DNA of 33,134 nucleotides from Candidatus Helarchaeota archaeon (GTDB taxonomy: Archaea; Asgardarchaeota; Lokiarchaeia; Helarchaeales; RDOG01): NCBI GenBank assembly GCA_029838215.1, contig JALGVI010000028.1, forward strand, positions 1-33,134. The letters run 5' to 3'. This document shows, piece by piece, positions 3,573 through 26,093 of the stretch (positions are counted from its first letter, which is position 1; each line of letters opens with the position of its first letter). A program made the position numbers and the translations under genes. The notes under the pieces are model-generated. The model was not told the origin of the DNA, did no database searches, and saw only the letters and a list, made by a program, of their open reading frames with translations.

Positions 3573-3649
3573 TGGAGCCCCAAGCGGGATTCGATCCCGC
3601 GACCTCTACCTTACCAGGGTAGCGCTCTACCAGGCTAAGCTACTGGGGC
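3573..3649 (-). tRNA. tRNA-Thr(GGT), intronless, CCA encoded
   Basis: Reverse complement folds as a cloverleaf: acceptor GCCCCAG/TTGGGGC, anticodon arm CTACC-CT-GGT-AA-GGTAG, T loop ATCGAAT, end TCCA. Confidence 0.95.
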
Positions 3650-6341: not shown

Positions 6342-6503
6342 TGCAGAGGGTGGGGTTTGAACCCACGAACACCTACGTGACAGGATCTTAAGTCCTGCGC
6401 CGCTGGTCAGTAACGACGGCACGCCAGACCCCTGTAGTTCTGCCACGGGTCGCTCCTATTGACCGACTTCGCCAATTCTCGAAGAATTTTTGGCTACCTC
6501 TGC
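6342..6503 (-). tRNA. tRNA-Leu(TAA) with two D-arm introns (6468-6489, 22 nt, position 14/15; 6403-6458, 56 nt, position 21/22)
   Basis: Acceptor GCAGAGG/CCTCTGC, anticodon arm CAGGA-CT-TAA-GA-TCCTG, long variable arm, T loop TTCAAAC. Removing both inserts yields an 84-nt mature tRNA with D arm GCCAAGTCGGTCAACGGC; both inserts are flanked by BHB-type motifs. Confidence 0.85.
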
Positions 6504-22774: not shown

Positions 22775-23716
22775 TCAAGGAAGGAGTCCTTCTTTCTCGG
22801 CTAAATGCTTTAGGATTTTATTCTTTTTCTCCGGATCGATCTTATCCCAGCTTCCATTTTGGAACGTGATCTTGTCATTTTCAATGGTGAAGCTGCATAT
22901 TTGCCCCACGGGACCTTCGACTTTAATCAACCGGACATCATGTGGTTTTTTCGTTTGACCAACAAAAATCTCATCAATTTCAGTTAATATCGAAGTGATT
23001 ATTAGACCGGTTCGCATTTCACCCATGGTTTTTTTATCGAGCATTGATTTTCCTTTTGACACGGGTTGGGTGATCGGTTCAAGTGAGAGAGGAGGTTTCA
23101 TTGGAGCAGCAGAGGTTGATGTCGAAGGACCTTGTTGTGAATACTTTGGAATTGCTGTAGCGGTACTGGATTCAGGAGGCGGTGCAGGTCGAAATTCACC
23201 GATTATCTGTTCAATTTTTCTGGTGTCATCCCCTGCAGATGGGGCCGCAATGGCGGCTTTTACTAAATTGGCACGTTGTTCAGTAGTCAAGCCATATTTA
23301 ATGTTTGAAGACCCAAGTTCGGCGGCATCATATTGTGCTAAAATATTTTCGATTTTATAAGTGTGTGGCGTGTTTACCAAGCGCACGATCGAATCAAACC
23401 GCTGTTTCTGTTCAGGATCACTATCAAGCGCATCTCCCCGAATATCATATACGTCTTCTAAATTACGACCAATCACGGAGTTTGCAATTTCGTGTCCATA
23501 TGCCTTTAGACTCCTAGCAGCACGCATGGACCCACGACGTTGAACTAAACCAGTCGATTTACCCATCCAGACCCAAAGCTTGTTATTGACTTCATCAATA
23601 ATGGCAACTATATTATCGTCCCGTAGGTTTTCTATCGTGAAGGGCACCCTATGGGACATGCCTTCTTCAATTTGAAGCATGATGGCGAATTTCGCATCTG
23701 TTCCCAATTTGTTCAT
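22775..23716 (-). CDS. Gelsolin-domain protein with Pro-rich linker and uncharacterised C-terminal domain
   Basis: N-terminal DDNIVAIIDEVNNKLWVWMGKSTGLVQRRGSMRAARSL fits the gelsolin-repeat core (D-x-hhh-D...hW-hW-x-G-K...helix). Confidence 0.72.
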   Translation of the reverse strand: MNKLGTDAKFAIMLQIEEGMSHRVPFTIENLRDDNIVAIIDEVNNKLWVWMGKSTGLVQRRGSMRAARSLKAYGHEIANSVIGRNLEDVYDIRGDALDSDPEQKQRFDSIVRLVNTPHTYKIENILAQYDAAELGSSNIKYGLTTEQRANLVKAAIAAPSAGDDTRKIEQIIGEFRPAPPPESSTATAIPKYSQQGPSTSTSAAPMKPPLSLEPITQPVSKGKSMLDKKTMGEMRTGLIITSILTEIDEIFVGQTKKPHDVRLIKVEGPVGQICSFTIENDKITFQNGSWDKIDPEKKNKILKHLAEKEGLLP

Positions 23717-23914: not shown

Positions 23915-23966
23915 GGGATGAGAAAATGGTTTTTCTAAGAGAAAATCGATCTCAAGTAAATTGGAG

Positions 23967-24326
23967 ATGAATATATTGGACCAAGCAATCAATGCAATTT
24001 ACGGCGAGGAACCGAGCATAACGGCATTAGCAATAGTGGTAAATGACCAGATATATTGGCAAACCGAAAATTGGGATTTGACCGCAGACTTACCCGGAAT
24101 ATTATCCACGTGGACTGGTGGTGGCGGTGGGTCTATTAACATCAGTGGAGTAAAGTACATAGTGCTATCTGCAGGTCAGGATCACATCTCAGCAACGAAC
24201 ATACAGGGGCAAGGTCATATTGTTGGATGTCCTTGCAAGTCCGGAAAAATCATCGCATATGTGAGTCCAGACGGAGATAATCGCGGAGCTTTGATGGCTC
24301 TTCAAAAACATGCTCACGAAATTTAA
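23967..24326 (+). CDS. Asgard-type profilin
   Basis: 119 aa with QTENW, GVKY, TNIQGQGHI, AYVSP and RGALMALQ, matching the motif order of Lokiarchaeota profilins. Confidence 0.88.
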   Translation: MNILDQAINAIYGEEPSITALAIVVNDQIYWQTENWDLTADLPGILSTWTGGGGGSINISGVKYIVLSAGQDHISATNIQGQGHIVGCPCKSGKIIAYVSPDGDNRGALMALQKHAHEI

Positions 24327-24396
24327 GTTTCCTTTTTGTTTTTTTTATTTCTTTTCACATCTCAAGATTTATTTTACGTGATACCATCAGCTACGT

Positions 24397-24477
24397 GCAG
24401 CTGGCATGTGATTCGCGACCCCTACGGAACTTGATTTTCAAGTGATGACGGAGATCTTGAGTGATGATGCCAGTTGC
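24397..24477 (+). ncRNA. Candidate box C/D guide sRNA (sRNA-3)
   Basis: 10-bp terminal stem GCAGCTGGCA/TGCCAGTTGC, bulge TGT, C-like GTGATTC (24408-24414), 16-nt guide, D' TTGA (24431-24434), C' GTGATGA (24442-24448), 15-nt guide, D-like ATGA (24464-24467). Confidence 0.78.
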
Positions 24478-24513
24478 CATTAATTGCGAGTAAAAAGAGA
24501 TTTTAGGTTGAAA

Positions 24514-25542
24514 TTGATGGCAGATCGGTATGCGTTTGACCTTCCTAAGGAATTTATTGCACAGAAACCATTAGAAAAACGAGATCAATCGAATCTAATG
24601 GAATGGAAGGAAGGTAAAATCATGCATCGCAAGTTTTATCAATTGAAGGATTATTTTCAGCGAAATGACGTTCTCGTTTTGAATGATTCTCGCGTGTTGT
24701 CAAACCTGCTTGAAGGAAGGAAGGTTTCGGGGGGAAGAATCCGTCTATTATGCCTGCAAGAAGTCGATGATGCAAGATGGGAATGCTTGGTAATGGGCAA
24801 GAGAATTCGAGAGGGATTGAAATTTATCATTGGAGACGGATCTCTTGAGGGGACCTTGGAAAAGCAGATACTTGAAGGGAGATTTATCGTTCAATTTGAT
24901 GGACAAATTGGTTTTCGAAAAGCACTTGAAGAATTTGGTTCCGTCCCCTTACCGGAATACATCGAGGATATAAGTCCATCCTTTGATTTTGAGCGATATC
25001 AGACATGTTTTGGCATGAAGGAAGGTTCGATAGCGGCACCTACGGCAGGGTTGCATTTTTCCAAGACACTGCTGGAAGACTTGAAATCACGAGATGTTAA
25101 AATTCGGTTCATAACGCTTCACATCAGTATAGGAACGATTCTAAGAATAAAAACAGGAGATCTTTCAAGTCATAAGATGTATCCGGAATTTGTCCATGTT
25201 TCTTCTTCTGTAGCGGACGTGATTAATCAGGCAAGGGCGGATGGTAGGCGAATTTTCGTGGTTGGAACCACCTGTTTGAAAGCACTCGAATGTGCCGCAG
25301 ATGACGCGGGAATTCTCCATTCATTTGAGGGAGATACAGATTTATTTATTTATCCGGGATACCGGTTCAAATTTCAGCCTGACGCGTTCATTACGAATTT
25401 TCACTTGCCGAAATCAGCCCCATTATTAATGACCGTTGCGTTAATAGGATGGGAAAGAATTCAAGAGATGTACGAAGAAGCCAAGCGGAAAAAATATAGA
25501 TTTTATAGTTTCGGAGATGCAATGATCTACTTTCGGACTTGA
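24514..25542 (+). CDS. queA: S-adenosylmethionine:tRNA ribosyltransferase-isomerase QueA
   Basis: FDLPKEFIAQKP, VLVLNDSRV, PLPEYI, RYQT, GSIAAPTAGLHF, VGTT, TNFHLPKS, YRFYSFGDAM. Start uncertain (TTG 24484, TTG 24514 or ATG 24517). Confidence 0.95.
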   Translation: MMADRYAFDLPKEFIAQKPLEKRDQSNLMEWKEGKIMHRKFYQLKDYFQRNDVLVLNDSRVLSNLLEGRKVSGGRIRLLCLQEVDDARWECLVMGKRIREGLKFIIGDGSLEGTLEKQILEGRFIVQFDGQIGFRKALEEFGSVPLPEYIEDISPSFDFERYQTCFGMKEGSIAAPTAGLHFSKTLLEDLKSRDVKIRFITLHISIGTILRIKTGDLSSHKMYPEFVHVSSSVADVINQARADGRRIFVVGTTCLKALECAADDAGILHSFEGDTDLFIYPGYRFKFQPDAFITNFHLPKSAPLLMTVALIGWERIQEMYEEAKRKKYRFYSFGDAMIYFRT

Positions 25543-26093
25543 AGCCGTCTCGGATTTTTCTGGTCTTTGAGAGAAAAAACGCATCCACAATAAGTTTGAC
25601 GATAGATTTCATATTTCCTGCAAAATTCGACGCTTTCCTTAAAACCATTTTTTTTCTTGAAATCATGAGGAAGAAATAAGATGTCAGAGTCTTGAGTCAA
25701 TAATTCACCGATTTCAGTTATTTTTGAAAAGTTTTTGTGCGGACTTATTGTAAGCGTTGTTGTAACGTGATCGAATCCATATTTTTTAGCGTATTCTATC
25801 GTTTTTAATAACCGATAGCGAATACATTTTGCACATCTTACTCCCCCTTCCGGCTCACTTTCGTATCCATGCATTTTTTTAAGCCAATCTTTGGGATCGT
25901 AAACATCTTCAACGAGATGAATCTCAAGCAATCGTGCCACGTGCCTTGCGTGTTCTAATCGTTTCAGATATTCTGCTTCAGGATGAATATTGGAATTTGA
26001 AAAAAATACCGTCACTTCATGATCCGGTTGAAGGCGCTTGATTGGAACGGACATGCACGGTCCACAACATGCGTGAAGAAGGAGTTTTTTCAG
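25527..26093 (-). CDS. queH: Epoxyqueuosine reductase QueH (DUF208), probable CTG start
   Basis: NSNIHP..EY.KR, EPEGGVRCAKC..YRL, TTTLTISPHK, YRQTYCGC. The conserved N-terminal LLLHACCGPC lies upstream of the track's ATG 26054. Confidence 0.9.
   Translation of the reverse strand: MKKLLLHACCGPCMSVPIKRLQPDHEVTVFFSNSNIHPEAEYLKRLEHARHVARLLEIHLVEDVYDPKDWLKKMHGYESEPEGGVRCAKCIRYRLLKTIEYAKKYGFDHVTTTLTISPHKNFSKITEIGELLTQDSDILFLPHDFKKKNGFKESVEFCRKYEIYRQTYCGCVFSLKDQKNPRRLQVRK

Follow-up and report, generated by a model that had tools for sequence, protein, structure and literature searches.

The window analysed here is a stretch of 33,134 nt from an archaeal MAG (3.62 Mb in 170 contigs, 38.6 % G+C). 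Segment 24397-24477 of its plus strand is intergenic and unannotated, falls within the 157 bp that separate the gene for QueA from the preceding ORF, which ends at 24326, and is crossed by no ORF of 40 aa or more on either strand. The queA frame (Pfam match with E 4.5e-104) has possible starts at 24484 and 24517, and the 3' end of the segment lies 6 nt ahead of the first possible start codon and 39 nt ahead of the ATG. QueA (24517-25542, plus strand) and the neighbouring QueH (25527-26054, minus strand, E 1e-56) are both intact and represent bacterial-type late queuosine genes within an archaeal genome. On the upstream side, the ORFs 23961-24326 (plus strand) and 22775-23716 (minus strand), which had been labelled profilin and gelsolin, have no Pfam match at E up to 0.001. 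The TATA-like TTTATTTT at 24368-24375 (plus strand), recognized from its letters and centred ~26 nt ahead of the predicted 5' end of the segment, is a possible promoter of its own. A search for sequencing runs that contain the organism listed two DNA metagenomes with a small share of it, and no RNA run.

The segment very probably encodes a genuine box C/D guide sRNA, with the predicted order GCAGCUGGCA-UGUGAUUC-GCGACCCCUA-CGGA-ACUUGAUUUUCAAGU-GAUGACGG-AGAUCUUGAGUG-AUGA-UGCCAGUUGC. A terminal stem of 10 bp joins GCAGCUGGCA (24397-24406) to UGCCAGUUGC (24468-24477). Next to it stand a variant box C (24407-24414), comprising the 3-nt bulge UGU, the GA of the sheared pairs (24410-24411) and UUC, and a variant box D, AUGA (24464-24467), in place of which the relatives have CUGA, UUGA or GUGA. 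The stem, the bulge and the tandem sheared G.A pairs form a K-turn with the contacts G10.A67, A11.G66, U12.U65, U13-A64 and C14-G63. Boxes C (GUGAUUC) and D (AUGA) depart from the canonical sequences, and their odd appearance is explained by the substitution of U-A for the canonical G-C in a covarying pair between position 6 of box C and position 1 of box D (G-C in 7 cases, U-A in 6 including the present one, A-U in 2, C-G in 2, and a mismatch in 3).

The interior of the molecule consists of the D' guide GCGACCCCUA (24415-24424, 10 nt, with the core GACCCCU at 24417-24423), the D' box CGGA (24425-24428), the hairpin ACUUGA-UUU-UCAAGU (24429-24443), the C' box (24444-24451) and the D guide AGAUCUUGAGUG (24452-24463, 12 nt). 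In the homology model, CGGA and AUGACGG are the internal boxes and the 6-bp hairpin (A29-U43 to A34-U38, by the last two coordinate digits) closes a C'/D' K-turn, in which GAU (24444-24446) is the bulge, the GA at 24447-24448 makes the sheared pairs G47.A28 and A48.G27, and the CGG of the C' box pairs with the D' box, C49-G26 and G50-C25 lengthening the non-canonical stem. The C' box aligns with the AUGA(A/U/C)GA of the family. CGGA was taken as the D' box because it corresponds to the CNGA of the relatives and reproduces the box-to-box length of the homologue in the same-family genome G001 (in the alignment, 19 nt separate the GA of box C from the GA of D' in both), and this choice gives guides of 10 and 12 nt. 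Another possible pair of internal boxes, UUGA (24431-24434) and GUGAUGA (24442-24448), is also present, 7 nt apart. The best fold of the naked RNA is a rod with the guides paired to each other (-33.4 kcal/mol, z -4.9). No family reached its threshold when the locus was scanned with Rfam, whether at the gathering cut-offs or at E up to 10: the best match was sR19 (RF01142), with 14.9 against the required 45 bits, all sub-threshold matches are C/D families, and no riboswitch family matched even at E up to 10.

BLASTN against 60 relatives mostly matched the T-rich flank, and only three matches, to the C'-guide-D part, exposed a family. With a 24-nt C'+guide+D pattern, allowing up to 3 mismatches, we found this module in 9 of the 161 genomes of the class, 8 of them other than the source genome, and in none with the reversed control. 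The pattern ATGA-N3-AGATCTTGAGT-N-ATGA, with up to 1 mismatch, extended the C'-guide-D module to 92/400 genomes and 33/85 genera of the phylum (reversed control 0 on either strand). The 30 homologues compared have a common order: a terminal stem, box C, a D' guide of ~10-11 nt with the core (U/C)GACCC, a D' box CNGA, a variable linker, a C' box AUGA(A/U/C)GA, the 12-nt D guide AGAUCUUGAGUN, a box D NUGA and the 3' stem. Many of the modules in the 92 genomes possess the canonical CUGA box D at an equal distance from the guide, so that the N+5 register is kept. Conservation centres on the boxes and on 10 nt of the guide, whereas the stems covary: the sequences of the terminal stems vary while their pairing stays (G001 also has 10 bp, in other letters), and RNAalifold applied to 15 class members yielded 12 stem pairs, of which 8 exhibit compensatory double changes. 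MAFFT and RNAalifold misaligned the 5' ends of the present sRNA and of that of G001, and the hairpin and the D' box were therefore parsed by script. The linker between D' and C' is a hairpin of unrelated sequence in most class members (z about -1.5 to -6.7) and a classical K-loop of 3-10 nt in some distant lineages. At locus L005 (G050:C48) the sRNA is duplicated, the copies being ~1.2 kb apart; the second copy, with hairpin, C' and D guide preserved but box D lost (GAGTAACTAA), looks like a decaying paralogue.

The D guide carries the best supported function. The original prediction had read GATCTTGAGT at 24453-24462 as complementary to the anticodon arm expected of a tRNA-Leu(CAA), with wobble position 34 selected by the D+5 rule, and each of these points held: the string lies exactly there, the genome's own tRNA-Leu(CAA) gene contains the predicted arm (GGACTCAAGATC), the complementarity is 10/10, and guide nucleotide 5, counted from box D AUGA (24464-24467), is G24459, opposite C34. 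The duplex involves guide positions 2-11, with A31 to C40 of the tRNA (ACUCAAGAUC) opposite guide nucleotides 24462 to 24453, and its energy is -15.7 kcal/mol; ~4e-5 chance occurrences are expected for a 10-mer that falls within a tRNA at the register of position 34 (46 tRNAs / 4^10). ACTCAAGATC occurs 21 times in the genome, once inside a tRNA-like gene on contig C115. This tRNA-Leu(CAA) gene (C115:11463-11634, minus strand, i.e. outside the window) is split by three introns, by our reading a D-loop intron of 20 nt, one of 38 nt at the canonical position 37/38 and a T-loop intron of about 29 nt. Unspliced, the gene was missed by both ARAGORN and the Rfam tRNA model; after in silico splicing ARAGORN recognized it as tRNA-Leu(caa), with a genome-encoded CCA. 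Since the 37/38 intron starts with AUC, the precursor and the mature form both pair with the D guide.

The tRNA-Leu(CAA) of ten other sRNA-bearing genomes (G001, G004, G014, G038, G040, G041, G070, G137, G144 and G186) invariably presents ACUCAAGAUC / GGACUCAAGAUCC after splicing, and the number and position of its introns differ among these genomes. In G038 an intron turns the precursor into ACUCAAGUUC, and the full 10 bp can form only with the spliced tRNA. At the loci L143, L144, L145 and L152, all from genus g10, the tRNA-Leu(CAA) intron interrupts the 5' strand of the anticodon stem (near 31/32) and not the 37/38 site, so that these genes escaped the contiguous DNA pattern GACTCAAGATC. 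As guide and target are both invariant, covariation between them is not to be expected for the D arm; its role is well supported by strict conservation, which ends exactly at the limits of the 10-nt duplex.

Guidance of C34 ribose methylation of tRNA-Leu(CAA) is thus a well supported prediction, drawn from the anatomy of the sRNA and from the biochemistry of a Pyrococcus counterpart. We propose that the independently encoded sRNA of ~81 nt would assemble with L7Ae, Nop5 and fibrillarin into a methylation RNP, and that its D guide would place the wobble C34 under the active site of fibrillarin, yielding Cm34. The genome encodes fibrillarin and Nop5 in adjoining genes on contig C122 and also two L7Ae-family proteins; the fibrillarin most resembles its counterparts in Asgard lineages such as Jord-, Frey-, Baldr-, Sif-, Borr- and Hermodarchaeota (~50-53 % identity). 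The closest known relative by function is sR47 of Pyrococcus abyssi, together with its orthologues in that genus; its D guide directs C34 methylation of tRNA-Leu(CAA), an activity shown in vitro in the presence of L7Ae, Nop5 and fibrillarin (PMC3413156, PMC7994747). In both RNAs the nucleotides ahead of box D complement the anticodon arm of tRNA-Leu(CAA), C34 falling at N+5, and the substrate arm used with sR47, GACUCAAGAUCC, is identical to the one found here (PMC3413156). The likeness, as far as the guide and its target were compared, is one of function and does not show common descent; sR47 belongs to another phylum. The Asgard sRNA also differs from sR47 by its variant boxes (GUGAUUC / AUGA), by a C'/D' motif closed by a hairpin instead of a short K-loop, and by a D' arm that appears to pair with the intron of another tRNA precursor. 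In P. furiosus, C34 of tRNA-Leu(CAA) is likewise a predicted C/D target (PMC7668247).

The precursor in question is that of tRNA-Leu(UAA), whose gene lies in the window (6343-6503, minus strand) and is interrupted by introns in the D arm. Its anticodon arm ACUUAAGAUC occupies 6384-6393 and is the ACTTAAGATC that the original prediction had quoted for this tRNA. The D' core GACCCCU (24417-24423) is complementary over 7 bp to AGGGGUC in an intron of this gene (6427-6433, minus strand); accepting a 2-nt bulge lengthens the pairing to 9 bp, and the 10-nt guide gives -15.1 kcal/mol, compared with -10.9 for 16S helix 45 (see below). We compared the 12 nt that precede the D' box with the pre-tRNA-Leu(UAA) of 18 sRNA-bearing genomes and of the source genome. 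In 19/19 cases the longest uninterrupted pairing with the cognate precursor involves a G-run motif read as intronic, its intron status having been mapped for the gene in the window and deduced from exon anchors in the relatives. In this class the motif resides in a D-arm intron, whereas G186, G202 and G204 have it in the one at 37/38. All share one register (from guide position 1-3 to 7-12, with the guide CCC at positions 3-5), and the lineages exhibit compensatory forms, namely UGACCC/GGGUCA, UAACCC/GGGUUA, UAGCCC/GGGCUA and GACCCC/GGGGUC. Individual guide/intron pairs include UCUGACCCA / UGGGUCAGA in f5 (9 bp), UUCUGACCCA / UGGGUCGGAA in G038 (10 bp, one of them G-U), UCUAACCCUU / AAGGGUUAGA in G186 (10 bp), UCUAGCCC / GGGCUAGA in G236 (8 bp) and AUGACCCCA / UGGGGUCAU in G001 (9 bp). 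The extra guide C shared by the source genome and G001 is answered by an extra intron G in both, and for divergent lineages the cognate pairs are better than the non-cognate ones.

The strength of the match varies among the genomes. Shuffling gave a p of 0.03 or less in 9/19 genomes, related genomes not being independent samples. The match is 6-8 bp long in the large family f4, the intron of which has one extra A, and 6 bp long in G202 and G204. For the source genome itself the 7 contiguous bp correspond to a shuffle p of about 0.1 and tie with equally long matches in three other tRNAs, to the (G)GUCGCG(A) where the variable loop meets the T-stem. One of these is tRNA-Thr(GGU) (3576-3649, minus strand), in which all but one of 12 nt of the junction GUAGAGGUCGCG match the D' guide; the (G)GUCGCG(A) element, which recurs in two further tRNAs, is a possible alternative D' target. 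The exact D' target TGGGTCAGAG of five f4 genomes was found only in the sRNA itself and in coding-looking matches, and the D' guide has no meaningful match to tRNA-Leu(CAA), either mature or precursor. In the same tRNA-Leu(UAA) intron, GCGACCCGUGG (6443-6453, minus strand) resembles the D' guide GCGACCCCUACGG of the sRNA and can pair with AGGGGUC as an intron hairpin (the fold energy of the intron is -16.6 kcal/mol), so the sRNA would have to compete with an intramolecular helix. Covariation in the relatives nevertheless makes the G-run motif of the pre-tRNA-Leu(UAA) intron the more likely partner of the D' arm, a reading favoured across the family and more faintly by the source genome.

The best surviving alternative, which we consider unlikely, is that only the D guide works, producing Cm34, and that D' is either an orphan or acts on the (G)GUCGCG(A) of the three tRNAs. 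Published archaeal sRNAs that target tRNAs mostly combine one functional with one orphan guide (PMC7994747, PMC6009581), the three tRNAs offer as many base pairs as the intron, tRNA-Thr(GGU) extends the match, and no rRNA site for the D' guide is common to five genomes. An orphan guide is at odds with a D' core that is kept across the phylum and whose variants follow the motif in the pre-tRNA-Leu(UAA) intron instead of drifting, and a T-stem target with the fact that the GCG required for this pairing is peculiar to the source genome, G001 having CAU in its place.

The original prediction had assigned the D' arm to rRNA, making the sRNA a dual tRNA/rRNA guide. The quoted string CCCCTACGG is indeed located at 24419-24427 and forms 9 perfect bp with 16S helix 45 of the same genome (CCGTAGGGG / CCGUAGGGG at 1462-1470 of the 16S gene, C124:524-2016), so the complementarity as such was confirmed; the match, however, is within chance and absent from the 28 parsed homologues. 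About 0.15 matches of a 9-mer are expected by chance for a 16-nt guide against ~5 kb of rRNA, and a second 16S site at position 660, UCCGUGGGGG, is about as good (10 bp with one G-U), so that taken alone the helix-45 match does not rise above chance. These two were the only matches of the D' guide in the genome's own rRNAs; motifs of the GGGUCA type are absent from the SSU and occur only in imperfect form in the LSU. LSU GACAGGUCGGAUU, considered as a D' target because it gives 8-9 bp with one G-U in G054 and G070, was rejected, as the LSU of G001 has GGUUGG and the source genome lacks the site. The LSU rRNA of the source genome (C165:55169-58635, minus strand) measures 3467 nt. That of four relatives is 3105-3159 nt long and the model has 2987 positions, so the rRNA here is about 300 nt larger, through an expansion segment or an insertion.

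For C1510 of 16S (E. coli numbering; 1463 in the source genome) to be methylated in addition to C34, D' would have to be UUGA and C' GUGAUGA, forming a K-loop and leaving a 16-nt D' guide. We regard this arrangement as improbable, more so than a single working guide. The two motifs are acceptable as boxes at their spacing of 7 nt, the 16-nt guide gives a duplex energy of -20.4 kcal/mol (-10.9 kcal/mol with the 10-nt guide), and the weak Rfam alignment to Pyrococcus sR19 has CCCUACGG in common with our sRNA; but that alignment is far under threshold, the guides would be 16 and 15 nt long instead of the 10 and 12 nt defined by homology, and UUGA sits within the hairpin of conserved position. The 9-mer itself is a composite of the conserved CCC(C) core, a variable UA (also found in L054 and L057) and the CGGA box (24425-24428), and its CGG belongs to the D' box in the register of every homologue. 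The 28 parsed homologues possess no more than 6 nt complementary to helix 45, the exceptions being an unrelated 8-mer in L040 and a 7-mer in L049 that is a parse artefact, although G040, G054 and G070 share this part of the 16S 3' end, CCGUAGGGG, without any change. Homology, K-turn geometry and the chance estimate thus leave the 16S half of the proposed dual guide unsupported, while its tRNA half stands; the D' arm most likely guides no rRNA methylation.

A stable hairpin in the queA 5' leader (an attenuator, a riboswitch-like element or a terminator of the upstream gene) with C/D boxes arising by chance is very improbable: the rod fold and the short distance to queA would suit it, but the homologues occur in unrelated gene contexts, with neither queA nor the upstream ORF near any of the 35 homologous sRNA loci whose neighbourhoods we compared, which argues against a cis element, their conservation is concentrated in boxes and guide while the stems covary, and no riboswitch family matches. 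Because the adjacency to queA is not kept in the relatives, a link of the sRNA with queuosine is likewise unsupported.

All in all, we consider it probable that this RNA directs Cm34 formation in tRNA-Leu(CAA) through its D guide and that its D' arm pairs, as the more likely of its options, with the pre-tRNA-Leu(UAA) intron. The anticodon arm of tRNA-Leu(UAA) can likewise pair with the D guide (-13.1 kcal/mol), position 34 then forming a G-U. Such a G-U at N+5 is expected to impair U34 methylation (PMC6009581). The source genome yielded no second guide directed at tRNA-Leu(UAA) with an A at N+5. As both arms fit pre-tRNA-Leu(UAA), at sites 39 nt apart in this genome, a single RNP could grip the precursor by D and D' at once; such a two-arm hold may yield Um34, may help folding or splicing, or may do nothing. 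It is conceivable, and we put it forward tentatively, that the D' arm serves as a tether on the conserved intron motif and thereby enables U34 methylation despite the G-U while the intron is still in place. A parallel is known from yeast, where a wobble modification of tRNA-Leu depends on the intron.

Several known systems share some of these features. In Pyrococcus, four sRNAs serve position 34, in Leu(CAA), Leu(UAA), Met and Trp (PMC7994747); tRNA-Leu(UAA) thus has a separate sRNA there, unlike in the Asgard case. The pre-tRNA-Trp intron guide (sR50 of Pyrococcus; also in Haloferax volcanii) likewise combines a tRNA intron with C/D-directed methylation of wobble C34, and both its guides act on one precursor (PMC7994747, PMC6313347). 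There the intron itself is the guide, whereas the Asgard guide is a separate gene and the intron its would-be bound partner. Bacterial TrmL (PMC4615657) also accounts for wobble ribose methylation of the same two isoacceptors, as Cm34 in tRNA-Leu(CAA) and Um34 in tRNA-Leu(UAA), but it is a SPOUT enzyme that works without a guide RNA, i.e. analogous and not related. The Pyrococcus Rfam families sR19, sR14, sR5, sR2 and sR28 share the general box layout, and the D' guide of sR19 has CCCUACGG; the scores lie far under the gathering thresholds, and the Asgard sRNA is therefore not a member of any of them. A literature search of limited coverage returned no account of Asgard C/D sRNAs or of guide-tRNA intron pairing.

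To our knowledge, RNA-guided wobble methylation of tRNA-Leu has previously been documented only for Thermococcales. The sRNA and its predicted C34 guide add to a known kind of system, and the pairing of the D' arm with an intron is the interesting part. The retention of this sRNA family across the archaeal phylum closest to eukaryotes indicates an old and stable solution, and the family is a source of many natural variants of boxes and K-turns. If the D' arm does bind the intron, some of the many Asgard tRNA introns would gain a function, and one guide RNA would serve two isoacceptors; if the intron motif is indeed used as a tether, Asgard tRNA introns would be landing pads for the wobble-modification machinery.
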